Of a stretch of DNA of 53,527 bases, positions 25,087-52,409 are shown in pieces. Made by a program: the position numbers and the translations under genes. The notes below the pieces were generated by a model, which saw nothing but the letters and a program-made list of their open reading frames with translations, did no database searches and had not been told where the DNA came from. This DNA comes from a virus (Duplodnaviria > Caudoviricetes): the IMG/VR virus record IMGVR_UViG_3300042922_000627, positions 1 to 53,527 of that record; one strand, 5' to 3'. Within the stretch, counting starts at the first letter, position 1. Each line of letters begins with the position of its first letter.

Positions 25087-25611
25087 CTACAGCTTTGTTA
25101 TAAGTTCTGCCTTGCTATATGTCTTAACATCCTTTGTCATGAGTGAGAGGAAATCATCACGAGAGAATTCTGATAGCCTGAATACTTCCTCTGGTCTCAT
25201 ACCTAACTGCTTACCTATTTCATTTACTGATTTACCTTCAGTAAGTAAGCGTTGAACTATTGCTTTCATTGGGCCGAGTAGATGAGTACCACGTGCCCTG
25301 TTGTGTGTGACCGTACCATAAATATCACCAGCTGAATCTGTATGCTTCACTATGACAACGGGTACTTTACCACTAAGCTTTGTTATCAGTGGTTCTTCTC
25401 CTGACACCATCCACCGATGAAAGCCGTCGATGATGGTCATGTCCGGTCGTACCACTATAGGAAGCGTCCAACCGTTGGTGAGTATGGACTGTTTGAGCAG
25501 ATTCAAGTTCTCGCGTGTGACCTTGTTTGGGTTATAGTCATTAGCTTTAAGCCTACTCCTGTCTATCCATTGAAGCGAACCAAGTGGTGCAAATATATCT
25601 ACATCATGCAT
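25087..25611 (-). CDS. ParB/Srx-fold protein, IbrB-like
   Basis: LKANDYNPN, GWTLPIVV, IIDGFHRW, TVTHNRARGTH; start MHDVD overlaps upstream stop. Confidence 0.88.
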   Translation of the reverse strand: MHDVDIFAPLGSLQWIDRSRLKANDYNPNKVTRENLNLLKQSILTNGWTLPIVVRPDMTIIDGFHRWMVSGEEPLITKLSGKVPVVIVKHTDSAGDIYGTVTHNRARGTHLLGPMKAIVQRLLTEGKSVNEIGKQLGMRPEEVFRLSEFSRDDFLSLMTKDVKTYSKAELITKL

Positions 25612-26758
25612 TTGCTTCGCCTCCTTTCCGGAAGCGCTTGGCATATTCTGCATAAGAGCAGTATATATCCTGGTATATAGCGCGTAATGTTCTGAGCTTT
25701 GGATCACCGGCTATAAGTCCCTCATATATTTTGCGATAGTCACGTGGTCTTGCCATGCCATCCATCTCAATGAACAATTTACGGTAGCGTTTGGCCACAG
25801 CCACTTTATGCGGGGTATTGAAATACTCTTCAGGACGCTCAAACAGCATTTCCATGAGTAATGCCCGGTAGTCCTTTATGTCATCACCTTCAAGCTCTTT
25901 CCTCTTTCGGGAAGTGCGCCTGAACATTTCACTGTCCCAATACAATACAGCCAGGTATGCATTCGGCTCTCTGCGTATGACCTTCTCCATGAGTGTCGGT
26001 TCATATTCACCCATATGGACCAAGCTCGGTACCGTATCCACTGAAAAGAACTGTGACACTCGGAGCATATTCCGATTTGTTCCTGATTGGTACATATGCA
26101 GGTAAATGACCGGAATGTCGACCTTTTCATTTTTCAGATACAGCCAAACGTCAGATGTCTTCCAGTCATATATGGGATAAATCATATTTTTGTTGGTGAT
26201 ACCGCCTGCGCCCATATTAAGCGCTGACATATACTGTAAGCGCTGTACTGACTCGGAAGTCCTCACACCCGTTATCATGATTCCATCCATAGTGACTTTC
26301 GGTAGGAAAGTTTGATAACTGTCTACGCGTGGTCGTAGCTTCGGATGATTTAGCAGGGCGAATGGAGGCGGCCGCCTTATCCATATATCCTGCTTTTGTC
26401 TGTCCCAGCATATGAACGACTCATCGCTCGTAAGCTCATTCAGACAATTAAAATGTTTTACCTCAACACACCACCACTGGAATTTGGCGCCGGCGAGTAG
26501 GAATTTCTTTCTCCATACTTTGACGGTTTCTTCAATACAATCGAAGATTGCTTCCTCGTCTATAAAGAGGACTGTCAGGAGAGAGGCATCTATCTCTCCT
26601 GAGTGGATCAGCTTCAGAGTAAGGTCAGCCAGACACAAACTGTCTTTACCTCCGGAGAATGACATATACACCGGTACACCATTTGAAAATACATTTTTTA
26701 GCCTTTTCCTTGCAACGGTTACTACATCCATGTCGGATTGCACACGCTTTATAGCCAT
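25604..26758 (-). CDS. PP-loop PAPS-reductase-family protein, IbrA-like
   Basis: SFSGGKDS PP-loop, FIDEE, GVRTSESVQR, YPIYDW..DVW. Confidence 0.9.
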   Translation of the reverse strand: MAIKRVQSDMDVVTVARKRLKNVFSNGVPVYMSFSGGKDSLCLADLTLKLIHSGEIDASLLTVLFIDEEAIFDCIEETVKVWRKKFLLAGAKFQWWCVEVKHFNCLNELTSDESFICWDRQKQDIWIRRPPPFALLNHPKLRPRVDSYQTFLPKVTMDGIMITGVRTSESVQRLQYMSALNMGAGGITNKNMIYPIYDWKTSDVWLYLKNEKVDIPVIYLHMYQSGTNRNMLRVSQFFSVDTVPSLVHMGEYEPTLMEKVIRREPNAYLAVLYWDSEMFRRTSRKRKELEGDDIKDYRALLMEMLFERPEEYFNTPHKVAVAKRYRKLFIEMDGMARPRDYRKIYEGLIAGDPKLRTLRAIYQDIYCSYAEYAKRFRKGGEANA

Positions 26759-27342
26759 ATCCGCTCACCACATTTCTGGCAGAGGATATACTTGCGCTTC
26801 TCTTCCGCAGGTTCGGAAGGAGGGACATATTGCTCGGCGGTTTGCGCAGCTGCTTCCTCCTGAGCTTCGTATTTATCCCTGGTTTCCTTGATGTCGTTCT
26901 TGCGGCTCTCGTCAATAGTGCCGTATTCCTGCAGTGCTATTCCTGCCTCGTCTGCTTCCATGACGATGGATTTCAATAAATCCTCTTCAAAGCCTGGAAT
27001 ATCAAGGTCGTCTTTTAGCTCCAGGATAAAAGCATCGAACGTAGCCAGGTCATCGACACCCAAGTCGAATACTCTGTTGTCTGCCAACATCAACTTTTTC
27101 TTTCCCGATTCTGTCAGGCCAGATACAATATAGCAATCCGCTTCTGTTCTCCCCAGAGAACTGAGGGCTTCATACAAACCATTGCCGGCCAGTATCACAT
27201 TGTCCTCGTCGATGACGATGGGGCGGATCTGGTCGAACATTTCTATTGATCGTCTGAACTCATGGAGCTGTTTGTCAGTATGCAAACGCACATTACGCTC
27301 CGGCTTTTTGAGATCAGCCAGCTTTTTCTTGATTATCTTCAT
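26749..27342 (-). CDS. ParB N-terminal-domain protein with C-terminal Zn ribbon
   Basis: NVRLH...IRPIVIDEDNVILAGNG...LADNR; CQKCG. Confidence 0.85.
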   Translation of the reverse strand: MKIIKKKLADLKKPERNVRLHTDKQLHEFRRSIEMFDQIRPIVIDEDNVILAGNGLYEALSSLGRTEADCYIVSGLTESGKKKLMLADNRVFDLGVDDLATFDAFILELKDDLDIPGFEEDLLKSIVMEADEAGIALQEYGTIDESRKNDIKETRDKYEAQEEAAAQTAEQYVPPSEPAEEKRKYILCQKCGERIWL

Positions 27343-28715
27343 GCCCTCACCGCCTTTCGGGATGCGAGGACAGCCACTATGCCGCTCATGAGCACAGTGG
27401 TTAAACTTCCGATTGTCTTATACAGAGCAATATTGAATATATTGCCGTAAGCGAATATCGGCAAGCCTAAGCATAATGAAATCAAGACACCAATAAAAAC
27501 GCCCCGAGCAGATAACTTCTTGCCGAGTAATGTCATTACTGTTGGCAAGAGAGTCGATGCCCTGAGCGTACCATAAAACAAAAACAACCATGTTACTGTC
27601 AGGCCTGGTATATTGGAAATCGCTATTGCTACTACCAGCAGCATTAACATAGTAAGCTTTGACTTTTTTATGCTGCTACCAGTCTTGAGGTCCGACGTCA
27701 TGGATGCAGCTGCACATAGATTACTTGATACTGTGGATAGCAATCCAGATAGTATCATAAACAGGAATGGTATAAGAACCCACGCTGGGAAGATGGAAGA
27801 TATAAACTCGAAATTTACCATTCCCACATCAGAGGCTTTGAAGCCTGAGCCTGCTGCTATGAATCCCATCGCTCCCATTGCTATGGGTACGAGGGCAAAT
27901 ATTAACGCTCCAACAAAAAACGCCTTACCTATATGCTCCTTCCTGATTGAAAACACTCGTTGCCAAAAACATTGGTCTCCAAATGGTCCAGATGTCAGTC
28001 CTATCGCTGTAGGTAATCCGAAACCGAGGAATACCGCCAGCCCTGTTTGTGATGTCAACGAGGTCATGTTACCATTGATGGAGCCGAGTCCTTGAATTAG
28101 CGCAGACGCTCCACCATTCATTTTAAGCGCCCAAGGCACAAGTAATATACAACCACCTAAAATGATTATCATTTGCAAGGTGTCAGTTGCAACTGCCGCC
28201 TTAATGCCTGAAAACTGAGAGTATGAATAAGCAATCACAGCGAGCAGCATTGTCATAACCCAGAAGGGAAGTCCTGTTATTAGCGAAAGTATTTTACTCC
28301 CGGCCAGTAGTTGCACCGCTGTAGATAGAATAGCTAATGTCCCAAGCTGGAATGAATAAATGCCCTTCACTTTATTGCTTTGATATTTTTCTCCCATATA
28401 TCCGGATAGAGTAATACCCTGTGGAAATTCATTCCGGATCCGTTTTGCAAATGGGATAAATAACATAAGGCAAAGTACATTCGGTACCAGGAACCAGAAC
28501 ATTCCCGGTATACCATTTTGATATGCCTGCTGTCCTGAAACAAACAGTGCAGGTGCCCATACCCATGTTGCAGCAATACTCATGGCCGAAATCCCAAATG
28601 GAATTTTCCTGTCGGCTACATGGAACCTCTCAGCATTGGCCGTCCATTTAGTGAATATCACGGTCGTTGCTATCATAATAAAAGCATAAATAAATAATAC
28701 AAGAAAACCGTTCAT
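27339..28715 (-). CDS. Sodium:solute symporter (SSS) family membrane protein
   Basis: Many hydrophobic segments; SIAATWVWAPAL, YSQFSGIKAAVATD, DQCFWQRVFS, SGLLST. Confidence 0.88.
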   Translation of the reverse strand: MNGFLVLFIYAFIMIATTVIFTKWTANAERFHVADRKIPFGISAMSIAATWVWAPALFVSGQQAYQNGIPGMFWFLVPNVLCLMLFIPFAKRIRNEFPQGITLSGYMGEKYQSNKVKGIYSFQLGTLAILSTAVQLLAGSKILSLITGLPFWVMTMLLAVIAYSYSQFSGIKAAVATDTLQMIIILGGCILLVPWALKMNGGASALIQGLGSINGNMTSLTSQTGLAVFLGFGLPTAIGLTSGPFGDQCFWQRVFSIRKEHIGKAFFVGALIFALVPIAMGAMGFIAAGSGFKASDVGMVNFEFISSIFPAWVLIPFLFMILSGLLSTVSSNLCAAASMTSDLKTGSSIKKSKLTMLMLLVVAIAISNIPGLTVTWLFLFYGTLRASTLLPTVMTLLGKKLSARGVFIGVLISLCLGLPIFAYGNIFNIALYKTIGSLTTVLMSGIVAVLASRKAVRA

Positions 28716-28719
28716 GTAA

Positions 28720-28825
28720 AAAATCCTCCTTATTTTTTGTTTCCCGCTGCCGGCTGCTGGCGAACAGACACGACCCGGTACTGACTTTGCGTAAAGGAGA
28801 AACGCAGAGCCAAAATCCTCCTTTC
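28720..28825 (-). promoter_or_regulatory. Structured 5' leader of the symporter (duplicated SD, anti-SD hairpin loop, possible 27-aa uORF 28813-28730)
   Basis: AAGGAGGATTTT at 28823-28812 and 28731-28720; hairpin GCTCTGCGT-TTCTCCTTT-ACGCAAAGT between them. Confidence 0.6.
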
Positions 28826-28858
28826 AAATAAAATAGCGACTCCTTTTTAGAAGTCGCT
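28826..28858 (-). terminator. Terminator-like hairpin just downstream of the putative late promoter
   Basis: AGCGACTTCT-AAAA-AGGAGTCGCT followed by ATTTTATTT. Confidence 0.55.
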
Positions 28859-28900
28859 TGCTTATGTGGGATTTTACAGTTTAATGCTATCAAATATCAC

Positions 28901-28948
28901 TCGGGACATCAATACGGGGATTCGGGACATTAGGGGTTATTCGGGACA
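28901..28948 (-). promoter_or_regulatory. Direct repeats, probable late-activator binding sites
   Basis: TCGGGACA at 28901, 28922 and 28941 (about two helical turns apart) upstream of the late operon. Confidence 0.65.
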
Positions 28949-28971
28949 ACTTTTATAATCTTAATTACTAA

Positions 28972-29118
28972 TTATTTTACTGGCTCAACACATGCAGGCT
29001 CAAGATAATGTGCAAATCCATTCTCGTAGCATTCATCGAAATAATTACACTGTGGACAATTCTCAAATTGTACCTTGATAATATTGCCTTTATGCATGAC
29101 TTCTATATTTTGTTCCAC
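28972..29118 (-). CDS. Small Cys-rich protein (48 aa, not in ORF track)
   Basis: GGAGG-6 nt-GTG; MEQNIEVMHKGNIIKVQFENCPQCNYFDECY... Confidence 0.6.
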   Translation of the reverse strand: MEQNIEVMHKGNIIKVQFENCPQCNYFDECYENGFAHYLEPACVEPVK

Positions 29119-29137
29119 ATTATACCTCCTTCAACAC

Positions 29138-29407
29138 TTATTCATTATGCGATACGATTTCTTGAAATTCATCATATTCATAACCGCTACATTCTTCTTT
29201 ACAATCGGCTTCATTATTGACACATCGGTATCTGTATCCTTCATCTTCTGTTTTAACGCTAATAAACCAATTACAACTAAGACATAGATTACGCTTTCCT
29301 CCTATTGTGAATCTTGCTCCGCAATAATCACACTGGCATTTAACTGGTTCACCTACTACAAGTGTTTCTCTCATTGCACCTACACATCTTTCACAGGCCA
29401 AAACCAT
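29138..29407 (-). CDS. Small Cys-rich / Zn-finger protein (start uncertain)
   Basis: CERC, CDYC, CLSC motifs. Confidence 0.6.
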   Translation of the reverse strand: MVLACERCVGAMRETLVVGEPVKCQCDYCGARFTIGGKRNLCLSCNWFISVKTEDEGYRYRCVNNEADCKEECSGYEYDEFQEIVSHNE

Positions 29408-29553
29408 TACCCCCAAAATTACACTATATTCATGATCCGACGTACTTTTCTTATTTTGCGCCCAAAAATGGACATAAAAAACGCACATCGTTTAAATGAA
29501 TGTGCGGTAATAGAATGATTCTTGATATATAAAGATTGCGAACTAAATCAATT

Positions 29554-30348
29554 TCATATTATGTTCATTTTTATTGTTGGCATTTCTTTTTCAATCTTTT
29601 TATTGAAGAATTCATTTTTGTTCTTTAGAACTATAGGAATACAAATAATTACACATATAGTGGTTGCTAAAGCATAAAACAAAACGCCTTCTCTACTTTG
29701 AAGAAGTGTAACAGAACCGACATTAACGCCAAAGTGGAACAATATCATGCATAATAAATTCCCACTGGTTTTCATATATACCCATGCCATAAAAATCGAA
29801 AAACATATTATCAACATTACAAACAGAAAAAAGCCCGATAATCCATAAGTAAATTTGCAGTGCCATATACCCCATAATGAACCAACGACTATTGTACTGT
29901 AAAACATATTATGCTTTTTTGCAAACATAGGTAATAGATAACCTCTCCAGCCGATTTCCTCTGTAATACATCCGAGCATTGCAGTAATAATTGTGATAAC
30001 ATATCCTAACGAAGTATCTTTCCAAATCACAAATTGATTTCCCATCGAAGATATTATCAGTGATGAAATTAAGATTACAGCCACAGGCAAGAATAAGGAT
30101 ACTAACATCCATAACAGAATTTTTTTTGTTTTAACAGAATTCCAATTCATTTTCACCCAAGCAGACCAATTATTTAACATCCCGCAAATGAGAACAAGTC
30201 CGATTGTAGGTGCATATTGTGGTGAAATAAATGCATTGTTTGTAAACATATATGCCGCTCCCAAAATAATTGTTATTAAAAAGGTAATCACAAAATAAAT
30301 AGCTATTATGTATCTTTTAAGAAAAGAGTTCTCGGTTTTTGTCTTCAT
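29554..30348 (-). CDS. CPBP/CAAX (Abi) intramembrane metalloprotease, moron
   Basis: EEIGWRG, WGIWH, HFGVN motifs; AT-rich; own promoter. Confidence 0.92.
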   Translation of the reverse strand: MKTKTENSFLKRYIIAIYFVITFLITIILGAAYMFTNNAFISPQYAPTIGLVLICGMLNNWSAWVKMNWNSVKTKKILLWMLVSLFLPVAVILISSLIISSMGNQFVIWKDTSLGYVITIITAMLGCITEEIGWRGYLLPMFAKKHNMFYSTIVVGSLWGIWHCKFTYGLSGFFLFVMLIICFSIFMAWVYMKTSGNLLCMILFHFGVNVGSVTLLQSREGVLFYALATTICVIICIPIVLKNKNEFFNKKIEKEMPTIKMNII

Positions 30349-46156: not shown

Positions 46157-46519
46157 GGCGCATATATGCGACTATTGAACCAAAAAAATTTCTATTGCCT
46201 CTTCTTTGGTCAGAACTAGGGCATCGCATATTTTGTGCATATCTCCGATACGGAGCTTTCCATCTTTAAGCCTACGATAGAAGGTGCTTCTATCTATGCC
46301 TATTTCATCGGCAACAGCCTCTTTTGTGGTCTCACGTTCTACGATTTTCCCATTTAATTTGTTGGTATCCATGTGATACATTACTTTACCCCCTTTGATG
46401 ATATTTGCAGGTATTTGTCGCATAAATGCTACTTTGTGTTTTAAGAATACTCTTTGTCGATGCCATTGTCAATAAAAAAGTCGCATAAATGAACATCTTT
46501 TTTGTTGCAATATTGCGAC
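46157..46519. promoter_or_regulatory. Four 16-bp repressor operators and divergent promoters
   Basis: GTCGCA-W4-TGCGAC variants at 46157, 46417, 46480, 46504; leftward TTGACA(46472)-17-TATTCT; rightward TTGCAA(46505)-17-TATACT with TGn extension. Confidence 0.85.
46172..46381 (-). CDS. Cro-like HTH protein
   Basis: KLNGKIVE...VADEIGIDRSTFYRRL...IF; divergent from repressor. Confidence 0.88.
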   Translation of the reverse strand: MYHMDTNKLNGKIVERETTKEAVADEIGIDRSTFYRRLKDGKLRIGDMHKICDALVLTKEEAIEIFLVQ

Positions 46520-46552
46520 ACTAATGTTATACTAAGTGGCGGAGGTGTTATC

Positions 46553-46894
46553 ATGACTACTGGAGAGCGTATTCGTGCTCGTAGGAAAGAAATCAACGTT
46601 TCGCCCGACGAGCTAGCTGATAAAATTGGAGTATCACGGTCAACCATATTTAGATGGGAGAATGGATTTATTGAGAAAATGCCAGTAGATAAGCTGGTAC
46701 CGATTGCTAGAGTATTACAAACTACCGTAGGTTACCTAATGGGATGGGAAGACGAGGAACAAACACCCGCCTCCGGCGCCGAAGACGGGTATGAAAGTGA
46801 AGCTAAACGTTTTTTTGAAGCTCTTCCTGAGAATCGTAAACTTGAGGCTTTAAATTATCTTCGGTATCTTGCAGCGAATCCAGACAAGCAATGA
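46553..46894 (+). CDS. CI-like XRE repressor without S24 peptidase domain
   Basis: GERIRARRKE...LADKIGVSRSTIFRWENG...YLMGW; GGAGG RBS. Confidence 0.92.
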   Translation: MTTGERIRARRKEINVSPDELADKIGVSRSTIFRWENGFIEKMPVDKLVPIARVLQTTVGYLMGWEDEEQTPASGAEDGYESEAKRFFEALPENRKLEALNYLRYLAANPDKQ

Positions 46895-46964
46895 ATTTCT
46901 GCTTTTCATCTTGCGTAAGTTGGCAAAAGAGCCCTCTTATATCCATCCATGTCAGTGTAACCAT
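46803..46964 (-). CDS. 53-aa protein antisense to the repressor 3' end; candidate antirepressor
   Basis: RBS AAAAGGAG; TATAAT at 47016-47011; hydrophobic pattern matches the repressor C-terminus. Confidence 0.62.
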   Translation of the reverse strand: MVTLTWMDIRGLFCQLTQDEKQKFIACLDSLQDTEDNLKPQVYDSQEELQKNV

Positions 46965-47137
46965 ATGTAACAACTCCTTTTGTTGTGAGATACCTGTCGA
47001 CATTATGTTAATTATAACGGATTCCGTTATTTTAAAAAAGAGTAAAACTGGCTAAATTTGTTAGTATTGATTAAGAATAGGTTTTTTATATATTGTATGG
47101 CATTAAACAATATGAGTATGGTCAGGAGGAGATATTC

Positions 47138-47593: not shown

Positions 47594-47772
47594 GAGAGTG
47601 ACACCAATGATAGAAATCATTTAAATTACTCTTCTTACACAAAAGACACAGAAATAATCAGTGGAATCATTTACAATTGTCCATTGTACTTATATTAACT
47701 TTACAAGGGCTACTTGTTTCTGCAAAATAATTGCATGTTTATATGACAAGCAACATTATGATGAGAGGAGTG

Positions 47773-49398
47773 ATGCCGGTGGCCAGAAAAGCTATGTTTG
47801 ATAGAAAGACGTCTGCGATTGCCGTCATCTATGCCCGGTATAGTAGCCATTCGCAAAAGGATGTCAGTATAGAGCAGCAAGTTGAGGAATGCCAGGCATA
47901 TGCTGACGTAAACAATATGAAGGTCATTGCTGTTTATGCCGACCGTCATCTTACGGGAAAAACGGATAAGCGTCCGGATTTTCAAAGAATGATGAGGCAT
48001 GCGGAAAAGAAACAGTTTCAGGTTATTATATCGTATAAATCAAACCGTATGGCTCGTAACATGCTTCAGGCTTTACAATATGAAGAAAAATTATCTAAGT
48101 TTGAAATCAGAGTCGTTTATGCAAAAGAGGAGTTTGGCGATAATGCTGCAGGTAGGTTTGCCCTTCGTACCATGATGAACGTTAACCAGTTCTATAGTGA
48201 GAATATGGCTGAGGATGTCATGAGGGGAATGCTCGACAATGCGGAAAATTGCCTCATTACGAACGGCTGTCTGCCCCTAGGTTATAAAAAGGGGGATGAT
48301 GGAAGGTATGCTATTGATGAGCCTGCAGCTGAAATAGTCAGGGAGATATTTACCCAAGTAGCATGCGGAGAGCCATTTATGGATATTGCTTCTGACTTGA
48401 ATACTCGCAATATTAAAACTAGCAAAGGAAATGTATGGAACAAAAACAGCTTTCATTCAATTCTGACCAACGAGCGTTATACAGGAGTTTATATATACGA
48501 TGAAGTACGAGTTGATGGAGGTGTCCCTCAGATCATCGACAAGGAGCTATTTTTCAGAGTGCAGGAGGTATTGAAAATGAAAAAGAACCCTCAAGGCCGT
48601 CACCGAATAAATGGCGATTACTTGCTCACTGGCAAGCTATATTGTGGCCATTGCAAAAGTCATATTGTTGGCGTATCAGGCACAGGCAAATCTGGCAATC
48701 TTCATCATTATTATGCATGTATGGGTAAGCGCCTTGGAAAGGTATGTAAGAAGTCACCGGTACGTCGTGATTGGATAGAACAGGAGGTCGCTAAAGCCAT
48801 CAAACAGTATATAATCCGTGATGATGTACTTAACTGGATAGCCGATACTGTAACTGAATACGGTAGGAAGAATAAGGATAACTCTCAGACCTCTTTGTTG
48901 GAAAACCAACTTGCCGAGAATAAAAAGGCTACAAAGAATTTGCTTTCTGCTATAGAACAAGGAATTGTAACGGAAACGACCAAAAGCAGACTTCTGGAGC
49001 TTGAAGCCGAGCAATCCAAAATCATAGGCCTTCTTGCAATCGAAAAATCAGAAATTCCAGAGATAAAAAGAGAGCATATTGTGGCTTGGTTGGAAAGTTT
49101 CAAGGATGGAGATATTGAGGATAAAAAGTTTCAGTCAAAGTTATTTGACACATTCCTCACTGCTGTTTATATTTACGATAATGATTTACGGATAGTATTC
49201 AATTTTACTGGAAAGAAAAATACAATTGAAATTCCATTAAAGGCGGAAATTATTGATAATATTAAGATTTCGGGTACGGCTGATAGTTCGTATAAATTCT
49301 CCTATGGGTCACCAAAAGAGAGCCATACGAACACAGCGGCAACCATTTATATGGTAAGCAATGTGTTCGTTTTGGTTTCACCACTAATTAGAAAATGA
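47773..49398 (+). CDS. Large serine recombinase (integrase)
   Basis: YARYSS, RPDFQRM, GY, Zn ribbon YLLTGKLYCGHC...YYAC...C, coiled coil. Confidence 0.96.
   Translation: MPVARKAMFDRKTSAIAVIYARYSSHSQKDVSIEQQVEECQAYADVNNMKVIAVYADRHLTGKTDKRPDFQRMMRHAEKKQFQVIISYKSNRMARNMLQALQYEEKLSKFEIRVVYAKEEFGDNAAGRFALRTMMNVNQFYSENMAEDVMRGMLDNAENCLITNGCLPLGYKKGDDGRYAIDEPAAEIVREIFTQVACGEPFMDIASDLNTRNIKTSKGNVWNKNSFHSILTNERYTGVYIYDEVRVDGGVPQIIDKELFFRVQEVLKMKKNPQGRHRINGDYLLTGKLYCGHCKSHIVGVSGTGKSGNLHHYYACMGKRLGKVCKKSPVRRDWIEQEVAKAIKQYIIRDDVLNWIADTVTEYGRKNKDNSQTSLLENQLAENKKATKNLLSAIEQGIVTETTKSRLLELEAEQSKIIGLLAIEKSEIPEIKREHIVAWLESFKDGDIEDKKFQSKLFDTFLTAVYIYDNDLRIVFNFTGKKNTIEIPLKAEIIDNIKISGTADSSYKFSYGSPKESHTNTAATIYMVSNVFVLVSPLIRK
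49286..49332. other. Candidate attP inside the integrase 3' end
   Basis: GTTCGTAT...ATACGAAC inverted arms spanning 47 bp around GGGTCACCA. Confidence 0.6.
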
Positions 49399-49539: not shown

Positions 49540-49788
49540 ATGATTAGGATTTTACTGTCCACAAGGCTTGGCGAGCGTAGGTGGACTCAAGCGGATCTGG
49601 CAAGGAAAACAGGCATACGACCCTCGACAATCAGTGATATATACAATGAGATGGTGGAACGGATCAATCTGGAGCACCTCGACCTGATATGTGATGCTCT
49701 GGGATGTGATATCAATGATATAATCGTTCGGATACCGAATAAAAAATCAAAAACAGATTCGTATAACAATAACAAGAAAAAGGAGTAG
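49540..49788 (+). CDS. Cro/C1-type HTH protein
   Basis: TQADLARKTGIRPSTIS...LDLICDALGC. Confidence 0.9.
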   Translation: MIRILLSTRLGERRWTQADLARKTGIRPSTISDIYNEMVERINLEHLDLICDALGCDINDIIVRIPNKKSKTDSYNNNKKKE

Positions 49789-49802
49789 CCTACTCTAACA
49801 GG

Positions 49803-49835
49803 AAAAAAGCCCGAGTTTTACCCGGGTCTTTTTTT
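49803..49835. terminator. Bidirectional terminator
   Basis: A6-GCCCGAG-TTTTA-CCCGGGTC-T7. Confidence 0.7.
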
Positions 49836-50012: not shown

Positions 50013-50026
50013 TAAACATATGTTCG
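50013..50026 (+). promoter_or_regulatory. LexA (Cheo)-type box
   Basis: TAAACATATGTTCG between TATACT (49990-49995) and RBS AAGGAG. Confidence 0.68.
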
Positions 50027-50046: not shown

Positions 50047-50346
50047 ATGCCATTTGGCCATGAGCAGAAGGAATGGGCTGAAAGAAAAGAGCATGACATA
50101 TACGAACAGAAGACTCAATTCAATGAGTTTATTACTGTTAAAGCTATGATGCGAAAAGATGGAAATGTTATTCCTACTACTTTTACATGGGAAGATCAAG
50201 AGATTAAAATTGAAAAGGTATTAAAGGTCCAACAAGGATCCTCTCTTAAGGAAACTGGTATTGCTGGAACACGATTTTTATGTCAGGCTATGAACAGACG
50301 GTTTTACTTATACTATACCGGAAGGCAATGGTATATAGATTTGTAA
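50047..50346 (+). CDS. Small protein paralogous to 285..518 (DUF6504-like)
   Basis: DGNVIPTTFTWED..IKIEKVLKV...G.AGTRFLC...YLY...WY. Confidence 0.75.
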   Translation: MPFGHEQKEWAERKEHDIYEQKTQFNEFITVKAMMRKDGNVIPTTFTWEDQEIKIEKVLKVQQGSSLKETGIAGTRFLCQAMNRRFYLYYTGRQWYIDL

Positions 50347-50462: not shown

Positions 50463-50957
50463 TTATCGATTACCTCTTGTTTTATTATAGCCTTTGTTGT
50501 ACGAGTTATATACTGTGATTGTGTTTCGCTCTAAATCATTTAATGAATCAAACCCACTATTTTCTAATGCAATCATTTTAATGGTAAAATCATCGCCATA
50601 TTTGTAATCCGCATAAACATCCCCATTGCCCTTACCTGTAAAATGGTTGTTAACTCGATTCAGTACTTGCTGTCCTTGCCCAACATAATACAAATTTTTC
50701 GTCTCATTTAAGAGAATGTAGACACCTGCGAAATTATACTTGGAAGCATATTGGGGGCTACCTTTTCCGCCAAAACTCTTAGTCCTCATTCCAAAAAATT
50801 CTTCAGGTGTCATCTCTAAAGTGTTATTAGCTAACCGGGTAACTTGACTCCGAATTTTCTCTTTCTGATATACTTGAAAGATGAAAATACATATGATTAT
50901 TAAGATTAACAATGCAAAAATATATATAAAATTCTCTGGGTTTACCATATTTTTCAT
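50463..50957 (-). CDS. GIY-YIG domain protein with N-terminal membrane anchor
   Basis: AGVYIL...YYVGQ...R..NH...LE...GYN; hydrophobic N-terminus. Confidence 0.85.
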   Translation of the reverse strand: MKNMVNPENFIYIFALLILIIICIFIFQVYQKEKIRSQVTRLANNTLEMTPEEFFGMRTKSFGGKGSPQYASKYNFAGVYILLNETKNLYYVGQGQQVLNRVNNHFTGKGNGDVYADYKYGDDFTIKMIALENSGFDSLNDLERNTITVYNSYNKGYNKTRGNR

Positions 50958-51134
50958 CCCCCAATCAATTATCCATTTTGTTTATTTCCAATATATACAA
51001 ACAATTCTATCATATTAAAGAGCAATTGTTAACGGCGCAAGCAAATTCCGGCAATTTGTATAAGAGTATAATGTATGTTTTTTTCGCGATATGTATTATA
51101 ATTATGGTAAAAATATGTAAATACTGGAGGTTTT

Positions 51135-52409
51135 ATGGAGTATTTAGATTTAAATTTTAATGATCATGATTTTCTCAATAGAAAAACATTTGTTACTAAC
51201 ATTATGAGAGTAATAGAAGGGTGGAATCCTAAAAGTCAAGAAAATAAATCCATAGTTTTTTCTCTCGATTCTTCATGGGGATCAGGAAAAAGTTATCTAC
51301 TAAATATGTGGAGAAATTGGATACTAACTGATTATGAAAATAAAAATTATGCGGTAGCGTACTATAATGCCTGGGAGAATGATGATTTTAATAGTTCATT
51401 TACTCCTCTTGTTTATTCATTACAAGACATAAAAATTAATGACTCTAATGAAACAGTTTTCAAAAACTTTGAAGAGAGATCCAAAGCATTTCTTAAATCA
51501 TGTGCAATCGCATTGGTAAAAGATGGTATAAAAAAAGTTTTTGGTGATGAAACAGCAAATCTAATTGACAAAGGCATTGATGCAGCTTCTCAAAAGAAAG
51601 TGGAAGATTATTTTGATAGTTTTAGATCGTTTAATGATCAGAAAGAAAAGTTTACTGAAGCATTAAGAAATTTAATCCCTGAGGATGGGAAACTTATAAT
51701 TTTTATAGATGAGTTAGATAGATGCCGACCGACATTCGCTGTAGAAACTTTAGAAGTCATTAAACATTATTTCAATATTGAAAATATAGTGTTTGTTATG
51801 GCTATCGATTTAGTTCAATTATCACATTCAATATCAACTTTATATGGAAATGATATGGATTCATCTGGTTATCTACGGAGATTTTTTGATTTTAATATTA
51901 ATATTCCATCTGCGGATATAAGAGAATACACTCTTAATTTATTATCATCTTATTCTTTAAACCATTCTAATGATTTTATAGATATGGTAATAAATTTATA
52001 TGATAAATTAGGTTTGTCGCTTAGAGACGTTAATAAAATAACAAATAATTTGTCAGTTTTTCTTCTATATTATAAAGAAGTAATCGCTAAAATTGAATAT
52101 ACGCGCTTAATCCCAATAATAGAAATGTATCTATATTTTATGATTCTTAAGTATAAATATCCTACAATATACAGAACTATACTTAACACTGAATTTTTGT
52201 TTTATAATAATACTCCAAAATATGGAAGTGTGATAGAAAAGAAATATATTGTATCACCTAATATACAAAATTTTATGAAGGAATTAGAAAACGGTAATGC
52301 ATTAAGGATTGATGGTGTCCTTATAAAAAAATATGGATTTGAGCATGAAAACACTGTAGACGTGTCTTTTTCACAGCATATAGAAAGAACTATAGAAATG
52401 TTCAGTTAA
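51135..52409 (+). CDS. KAP-family P-loop NTPase
   Basis: SWGSGKS, YNAWEND, IFIDELDRCRP, YLRRFFD; very AT-rich. Confidence 0.92.
   Translation: MEYLDLNFNDHDFLNRKTFVTNIMRVIEGWNPKSQENKSIVFSLDSSWGSGKSYLLNMWRNWILTDYENKNYAVAYYNAWENDDFNSSFTPLVYSLQDIKINDSNETVFKNFEERSKAFLKSCAIALVKDGIKKVFGDETANLIDKGIDAASQKKVEDYFDSFRSFNDQKEKFTEALRNLIPEDGKLIIFIDELDRCRPTFAVETLEVIKHYFNIENIVFVMAIDLVQLSHSISTLYGNDMDSSGYLRRFFDFNINIPSADIREYTLNLLSSYSLNHSNDFIDMVINLYDKLGLSLRDVNKITNNLSVFLLYYKEVIAKIEYTRLIPIIEMYLYFMILKYKYPTIYRTILNTEFLFYNNTPKYGSVIEKKYIVSPNIQNFMKELENGNALRIDGVLIKKYGFEHENTVDVSFSQHIERTIEMFS

Follow-up and report, generated by a model that had tools for sequence, protein, structure and literature searches.

A micro-gene convergent on a phage repressor encodes a candidate antirepressor in mirror register with the repressor's C-terminal helices

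Introduction

SinI inactivates SinR by forming a heterodimer that prevents DNA binding, and SinR is an XRE-type regulator with a two-helix C-terminal multimerisation domain; the sinI gene lies upstream of sinR in the same orientation. To our knowledge, most prophages of gut and soil Clostridia carry short repressors without a self-cleaving domain, and their route of induction is largely unknown. Here, a micro-gene of 53 amino acids (aa) is described that converges on and overlaps the 3' end of a short XRE-type repressor gene in the virus record IMGVR_UViG_3300042922_000627, the whole of which (53,527 base pairs, bp) forms the window analysed. The micro-protein is likely homologous to the C-terminal tail of the repressor, and its best reading, on balance a probable one, is that of an antirepressor that pairs with this tail and inactivates the repressor. 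The closest known systems are AimX-AimC and SinI-SinR.

Within the AimX-AimC-AimL system of the Bacillus arbitrium phages, AimC is a short XRE repressor of 80-140 aa that lacks an autocleavage domain and is built from a helix-turn-helix (HTH), a linker and a helical C-terminal oligomerisation domain (bioRxiv 10.1101/2025.11.23.689978). AimX is a helical protein of 29-80 aa encoded convergently on aimC, in some cases with overlap. It binds the C-terminal oligomerisation domain of AimC, and the heterodimer blocks both oligomerisation and DNA binding, for which the authors liken the pair to SinI-SinR (bioRxiv 10.1101/2025.11.23.689978). With phage phi106, a recoded overlap and a start-to-stop allele showed that the protein acts and that the antisense RNA has little effect (bioRxiv 10.1101/2025.11.23.689978). 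The transcription factor-small open reading frame (ORF) modules of Vibrio phages, and Qtip, also provide a small phage protein that inactivates a repressor without RecA-mediated cleavage (PMC10432266; bioRxiv 10.1101/2019.12.16.877910).

The locus described here shares with AimX-AimC, as the preprint presents it, a short XRE repressor that lacks an autocleavage domain, a cro-like gene in divergent orientation, a small convergent ORF that overlaps the 3' end of the repressor gene (here by 92 bp) and a regulatory site just upstream of the small ORF, here a putative one in the form of a palindrome. This likeness is one of described architecture. Unlike the arbitrium phages, the window lacks aimR and aimP, and its micro-gene has a promoter to itself and diverges from a neighbour that varies among loci. 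The promoter site is a CTG(N4)CAG-type palindrome and not a LexA or AimR site, and the hosts are Clostridia and not Bacillus. The micro-protein is also a likely mirror paralogue of the repressor tail, and no such claim is made for AimX in the parts of the preprint covered. Small ORFs of the Vibrio modules are paired with an adjacent dedicated transcription factor, whereas no conserved adjacent factor is found here, nor do the parts of those sources covered describe them as copies of a domain of the repressor.

With SinI-SinR the locus shares a small protein homologous, on the evidence of profile alignment (hhalign), helix pairs and mirror register, to the repressor's own two-helix C-terminal domain. 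A PDB profile search with the repressor matches P22 C2, 434-type repressors and SinR, the last over residues 3-108 (1b0n_A, E 1.6e-4). The first-pass annotation had proposed a SinI-like antirepressor, of which a real, conserved gene and a two-helix, in-register homologue of the tail have stood. The micro-protein falls outside the Pfam SinI family, with no match to that model for the micro-protein or the repressor at E <= 0.1, and none for seven repressor tails or 43 micro-proteins at E <= 1. In contrast to the chromosomal developmental switch of sinI and sinR, which share one orientation, this is a phage switch in which the two genes converge and overlap. No description of this micro-protein family, or of a mirror-duplicated antirepressor, was found in the literature, with subscription journals outside the coverage.

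The micro-gene and its recurrence

The genes and signals on which the argument rests are as follows.

46803..46964, minus strand: micro-gene of 53 aa plus a TAG stop, in the same frame in 9 of 10 distinct related loci
46553..46894, plus strand: XRE-type phage repressor of 113 aa (Pfam HTH_3, 5.6e-12)
46974..46979, minus strand: Shine-Dalgarno sequence AAGGAG, 9 nucleotides (nt) ahead of the ATG
46995..47002: palindrome TGTCGACA, situated between the -10 box and the ribosome-binding site where transcription presumably starts, and a presumptive operator
47011..47016, minus strand: -10 box TATAAT of the micro-gene promoter, without a good -35

The micro-gene shares the last 92 bp of the repressor gene on the opposite strand, and the first-pass annotation had placed this ORF, its ribosome-binding site and the TATAAT correctly. 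Residues 1-23 of the micro-protein are private to it; opposite residues 24-53, on the other strand, lie repressor codons 84-113 and the stop. A consensus promoter scan omitted the TATAAT because that scan requires a -35. A longer form of 66 aa, from an ATG at 47003, has neither a ribosome-binding site nor conservation.

Relatives were sought with the repressor in viral, genome and metagenome contigs, and with the micro-protein in viral contigs. Ten distinct loci had a close repressor (56-79% identity) and sufficient downstream sequence to be judged; L001 was left out, as its sequence stops at the repressor stop codon. The 53-aa antisense frame occupies the identical place in nine of the ten, namely the window, L002/L003, L005/L063, L055, L056, L057/L142, L062, L145 and L146, and its overlap with the repressor is 92 bp in every one. 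Start codons are ATG in seven and GTG in two, and a purine-rich site (AAGGAG, GGAGG, AAGGGG or AGGGAG) precedes the start by about 7-10 nt in all nine. All nine also have a -10-like hexamer at equal spacing, with a TGn extension in seven when read by eye. Upstream of the micro-gene in the window are 173 bp and then a divergent SHOCT-domain gene; depending on the locus, this neighbour encodes a SHOCT protein, a lipoprotein-like protein, a DnaQ-like exonuclease or a tyrosine integrase. Thus, the micro-gene travels with the repressor.

Further afield, a larger group of repressor relatives at 37-38% identity, with the tail LNEEGQxKAxxYVEDL, shows by eye no homologous antisense ORF. Convergent, overlapping micro-ORFs of 43 aa occur in two more distant loci: at 2784-2930 of L111, where the repressor is 44% identical and has a different tail, and at 354-506 of L066, where the repressor is 39% identical and the micro-ORF has a -10 box and a ribosome-binding site and lacks the palindrome.

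Evidence for coding and the protein family

The frame evolves as a coding sequence. Over private codons 2-23 in seven loci, the pairwise difference at codon positions 1, 2 and 3 is 0.52, 0.39 and 0.64, and the ratio of nonsynonymous to synonymous differences (pN/pS) is 0.47 in the micro-gene frame as against 0.63-1.37 in the other five. The same codons hold no stop in the micro-gene frame and 3-10 stops in the others. Codons 32-53 behave differently: their most variable position is the second base of the micro-gene, which is the wobble base of the repressor, and the tail of the micro-protein therefore drifts under the constraint of the repressor. The micro-gene is very probably a real gene.

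Searched against 1.84 billion proteins, a profile of seven micro-proteins matched 39 cluster representatives at E <= 1e-3, and 37 of these are small proteins of 37-118 aa with the common consensus M..L.W.DIRGLF..LS..EK..FI.YLRSLQD.EDNS.P. None of the ten members examined is named; they derive from metagenome assemblies, in clusters of 1-5 members. The micro-proteins thus form an unnamed family, and one that gene callers, which rarely predict the ORF, mostly miss because it overlaps another gene. Other searches were negative: a word-based protein search with the single micro-protein gave no match, Pfam and PHROGs gave no family assignment, Foldseek with the micro-protein model gave nothing in the PDB at E <= 0.001, the PDB sequence profile search with the family reached a best E of 0.78 and included neither SinR nor SinI, and the ESM Atlas gave no usable match. 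A blastn search of the module against phage records returned one record, over 73 nt of the HTH part only.

The two remaining profile matches, P0006 (1487 aa) and P0037 (467 aa), are large proteins with tandem repeats similar to the helix pair of the micro-protein, and were not counted as relatives. The repeat is (S/A)AEREEFI(K/Q)YLPSLW in P0006 and VTWPDFRALFAQLEP in P0037, where it stands beside EF-hand-like DKNGDG loops; the likeness is probably one of analogous helix motifs.

Likeness to the repressor tail

From a seven-row alignment, AlphaFold2 predicts helices at residues 6-14 and 18-36 of the micro-protein (46857..46949, minus strand; mean predicted local distance difference test, pLDDT, 75.3), with a pLDDT of 89-96 over residues 1-30 and a disordered tail at residues 39-53. 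The repressor is predicted to comprise an HTH (residues 3-63), a flexible linker (about 64-78) and C-terminal helices at 79-90 and 93-108 (AlphaFold2, pLDDT 77.7), and the predicted turns of the two helix pairs coincide in the aligned register. That register was first put forward as a gapless alignment of the two single sequences, which at 5 identities in 23 is weak alone. It was recovered by hhalign with seven micro-proteins against seven repressors, where micro-protein residues 10-37 align to repressor residues 85-112 (probability 53%, E 1.3e-4). The score of 26.2 was reached by none of 300 column shuffles (mean 10.0, standard deviation 2.4, maximum 22.3), and the reversed alignment scored 7.2. 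When every gapless register was scanned over the nine loci, this one alone had BLOSUM62 scores that sum to a positive value (+119, from 342 pairs with 67 identities), and in it the family consensus YLRSL stands opposite the repressor's YLRYL. Homology between the micro-protein and the repressor tail is accordingly regarded as likely.

Alternatively, the micro-protein might serve some unrelated purpose, as a recombination directionality factor, an exclusion factor or a host-directed factor for example, its tail likeness being only a relic of duplication. The micro-protein belongs to no known family, its gene is situated towards that end of the lysogeny module where the integrase lies, and its residues 32-53 evolve under the repressor's constraint, all of which would suit such a role. 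The micro-gene nevertheless travels with the repressor, while the integrase of other loci is of a different type or not adjacent, and conservation falls on the residues of the helix pair, the part that matches the repressor tail. An unrelated function is for these reasons considered unlikely.

Mirror symmetry and origin

The homology has a counterpart in the DNA.

46805..46937: stretch with dyad symmetry about base 46871, its left arm coding for repressor residues 85-106 (plus strand) and its right arm for micro-protein residues 10-31 (minus strand)

The aligned register of the proteins is the exact mirror register about this base, in which repressor codon 107+k reflects onto micro-gene codon 32+k. 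In a dyad scan of the nine loci, the centre at 46871 ranks first of 720, with 242 complementary matches in 594 against a mean of 153 (standard deviation 19); in single loci it ranks 1st to 12th of 720. In the distant L111, LSPEEL occurs in both the repressor and the micro-protein, and the mirror centre lies 24.5 nt ahead of the repressor stop. Because the protein register is the DNA mirror register, the micro-gene is read here as born by inverted duplication of the 3' end of the repressor gene. YLR(Y/S)L and LSPEEL are lineage-specific and common to both proteins within a locus, so the two copies appear to change together. The full proposal, that an inverted duplication centred seven codons before the repressor stop made a mirror antirepressor gene, in effect a free copy of the pairing domain, and that the copies have changed together since, is put forward tentatively, at slightly less than even chances.

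In L064, the repressor (949-1238) ends three residues past YLRYL, near the dyad centre of the other loci, and a tRNA-Leu gene lies 110 nt away. This locus could represent either the state before duplication or a deletion at a prophage end.

Dyad symmetry of this kind raises the question of whether there is a gene at all, or whether palindromic DNA where the repressor gene ends, for instance a bidirectional terminator or a recombination site, has produced both the open frame and its tail likeness as by-products. The symmetry at the DNA level, the rarity with which gene callers predict the ORF and the empty word-based search would fit such an explanation. The arms are, however, just 41% complementary, which is insufficient for a hairpin. 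The third codon position is the most variable, and the low pN/pS is confined to the micro-gene frame. Conservation extends to a separate terminator hairpin as well as to the start codon, the ribosome-binding site and the -10 box, and AlphaFold2 confidence over residues 1-30 is high. This explanation is very improbable.

Predicted binding and mode of action

The first-pass annotation had suggested structure prediction of the heterodimer as a check. Co-folding of the repressor and micro-protein alignments gave 0.45, 0.45 and 0.42, against 0.00 for the best of three controls, a result graded as weak support; the partner had a pLDDT of at least 61, with agreement between runs in at least 85% of contacts. 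Of 157 solved complexes, 116 reach the mark used to grade co-folds, as do 2 of 215 mismatched pairs; just 18 of the 157, and both of the mismatches that pass, do so at 0.60 or less.

On the observed gene, signals, conservation, predicted helix pair and in-register homology with mirror symmetry, we infer the further elements of the mechanism, namely oligomerisation of the repressor through its tail, binding by the micro-protein, the direction of the effect and a trigger. Inverted duplication of the C-terminal coding region of the repressor would have released a free two-helix tail without a DNA-binding domain. The lysogen would keep the micro-gene silent at its -10-only promoter, with the palindromic site at the transcription start, until some regulator releases that promoter. 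The micro-protein would then pair one-to-one with the repressor tail and replace the second repressor subunit, the repressor would lose oligomerisation on its three operators, and the cro-like and lytic genes would switch on. Convergent transcription into the repressor 3' end would possibly add a smaller effect.

The antirepressor reading draws support from the fact that no induction route of the S24 or ImmA type is seen in the scanned ORFs. The repressor's Pfam matches above cut-off are to HTH families only, with no peptidase domain, and, as the first-pass annotation had it, neither an S24 peptidase nor an ImmA/M78 protease occurs among the 63 ORFs scanned with PHROGs or the 17 further and 8 other ORFs scanned with Pfam, ORFs below 90 aa being mostly unscanned. 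The AimX-AimC precedent, together with the alignment of the repressor to SinR, may be counted in its favour by analogy.

Binding to the tail need not inhibit. SlrR partners SinR and changes its choice of operators, and the micro-protein could in the same way be a stabiliser, a co-repressor or a partner that alters operator choice. Such a helper would rest on the same homology and the same weak co-fold, and the computations are compatible with either direction of effect. Against a helper stands the build of the micro-protein: it has a single pairing module and no DNA-binding domain, so that in a one-to-one complex the interface of the repressor would be capped. AimX and SinI, the analogues that have been studied, both inhibit, and a helping role is considered improbable.

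Several points weigh against the antirepressor reading and the homology on which it stands. The hhalign probability is no more than 53%, from alignments of low diversity, and the column-shuffle control destroys helical periodicity and is therefore a lenient null. The repressor's C-terminal domain alone, searched against PDB profiles, reached a best E of 0.45 and found no SinR, SinI or AimC chain. The pN/pS test covers 22 private codons, and its pS is saturated (0.90). The nine loci are mutually related, so their counts and z-scores overstate independence, and the tenth, L064, has a close though shorter repressor without the micro-gene frame. The micro-gene is also rare: of 400 genomes sampled from the class, the seed genome alone has it. 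By the calibration of the tool itself, a co-fold that passes with such a score is wrong more often than it is right, unless the guess was likely beforehand, and the co-fold returned no interface by which contact with the tail could be distinguished from contact with the HTH.

A hairpin in the repressor linker and the role of the transcript

Downstream of the micro-gene, within the repressor coding region, lies a further conserved element.

46763..46792, minus strand: G+C-rich hairpin of 13 pairs, 11 nt past the micro-gene stop and within the linker codons of the repressor, listed as terminator-like

The hairpin is kept in all seven loci compared, with 95.2% of cells paired and compensatory change in 6 of 12 pairs, and its conservation score was reached by none of 500 shuffles. 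Owing to its G-U pairs, the hairpin is weaker on the plus strand, at a consensus energy of -13.0 kcal/mol compared with -20.0 kcal/mol on the minus strand. It likely terminates the micro-gene transcript. At the hairpin, the amino acids of the linker (residues 71-80) vary among loci while the codons preserve a strand-specific RNA hairpin, and the DNA of the linker thus appears to be selected for the transcript of the opposite strand.

These features might also be taken to mean that the transcript is the effector, that is, that collision with repressor transcription or an antisense RNA that spans some 130 nt at the repressor 3' end lowers repressor synthesis and the ORF is secondary. The 92-bp overlap, the conserved minus-strand hairpin inside the repressor coding region and the conservation of the promoter and palindrome are all compatible with this. 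The private codons are nevertheless under constraint at the protein level and free of stops in seven of seven loci, and nine of nine keep the start codon and the ribosome-binding site. The recoded and start-to-stop alleles of phi106 likewise point to little antisense effect in that phage, as far as the preprint reports them (bioRxiv 10.1101/2025.11.23.689978). A transcript acting in place of the protein therefore has a low probability. As an addition to an antirepressor protein, a contribution of antisense transcription is plausible from the anatomy of the locus.

The micro-gene promoter and the induction input

Palindromes of the CTG(N4)CAG type or of the form CTATCGATAG occur at the same spot in eight of the nine close loci and in the distant L111, whose micro-ORF promoter carries ACTGCCGGCAG, of the same type. 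The forms found are TGTCGACA, CTGTCGACAG, CTGCYGGCAG, CTGTCGGCAG and ACTATCGATAGT, and their symmetry is preserved via paired changes. A separate 13-bp palindrome, AACGGAATCCGTT (47018-47030), abuts the -10 box of the window at the place of a -35 and is absent from the other loci.

Two candidate regulators of this promoter were rejected. The palindrome is unlike the GTYGCA-N4-TGCRAC of the repressor's own operators and has no notable 7-mers in common with them, so these operators do not recur at the micro-gene promoter. LexA-controlled antirepressors of the Tum and Gifsy type carry a LexA box in the antirepressor promoter. In genomes with related prophages, GAAC-N4-GTTY boxes lie upstream of lexA in two of three, and the third has a near-match by eye. 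The window holds three GAAC-N4-GTTY sites, which is the chance level, none near the micro-gene, and the palindrome is of a different type; control of the micro-gene by LexA was accordingly dismissed.

Elsewhere in the window, a canonical Firmicutes-type LexA box, GAACATATGTTT (50014-50025, minus strand), stands just upstream of a 99-aa ORF (50047-50346, plus strand) with a good ribosome-binding site and a weak, sub-threshold match to DUF6504. This ORF may be an SOS-controlled accessory gene. It has no match in five related phage records and is therefore not part of the micro-gene module, and a link between the two was rejected.

Genome and lysogeny-switch context

The remaining features of the switch and its surroundings are listed here.

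46172..46381, minus strand: cro-like HTH gene of 69 aa, divergent from the repressor (Pfam HTH_26, 1.1e-6)
46417-46432, 46480-46495 and 46504-46519: three 16-bp operator-like candidates, GTYGCA-N4-TG(C/A)NAC, between the repressor and cro-like genes, read by eye
47731..49398: large serine integrase (PHROGs)

The window is the whole virus record, with direct terminal repeats and a completeness rating of 100%. PHROGs names tail, baseplate, sheath, head, portal, terminase, replication, recombination and lysis genes in it, and this set, with contractile-tail, integrase and lysis genes, identifies the genome as that of a temperate contractile-tailed phage. A metagenome-assembled genome that bears the label Eubacterium sp. 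(L054) contains the same sequence. Among the 63 window ORFs that were scanned, none has a receptor-like annotation.

The lysogeny switch spans 46172-47016 and comprises the cro-like gene, the three operator-like 16-mers, the XRE repressor and the micro-gene. The cro-like gene stands at the head of the early, replication and structural genes and is also found in L002, L142, L145, L146 and L111. Of the operator-like sites, the third overlaps the predicted repressor promoter (46505-46533), and similar sites are seen by eye in all related loci, L111 included. The PDB chain 9iaq_A (142 aa, HTH cro/C1-type) matches the repressor in its HTH part only (PDB profile search). The repressor tail shows weak matches to positions 6-27 of the Pfam model DUF2281 (PF10047) in seven of seven sequences (best E 0.0029); the best score, 17.2 bits, lies below the curated cut-off of 26.5, and none of 43 micro-proteins matches.

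Just past the integrase lies a second XRE-type regulator of 82 aa (49540-49788, plus strand; HTH_26, 5.1e-20), followed near 49800-49835 by a G+C-rich hairpin and a T run. Between the integrase and the lysis genes (50463-52409) are an ORF with a GIY-YIG domain (minus strand) and a KAP-family P-loop nucleoside triphosphatase (plus strand, 3e-33), which may be defence-type cargo. An unusual mid-genome cargo (25604-30348, minus strand) includes a PAPS-reductase-like gene, two ParB-like genes, a CAAX-protease-like membrane protein and a sodium:solute symporter family protein (PF00474, 2.1e-18; phrog_20720, 2.3e-180).

Implications

Two proteins and an RNA hairpin are encoded within the same 200 bp, with the putative terminator of the micro-gene written into the linker codons of the repressor. 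The conserved promoter palindrome marks a putative induction input of the micro-gene. Should the antirepressor reading hold, a 53-aa mimic of a repressor subunit would provide a concrete and testable answer to how Clostridia prophages with short repressors are induced, and would extend an AimX-type mechanism beyond Bacillus and beyond arbitrium signalling. The locus would also be a clear case of gene birth via palindromic duplication with dual coding. Mirror duplication would then give a matched inhibitor of an oligomeric regulator in one step, a compact and general route to such inhibitors.

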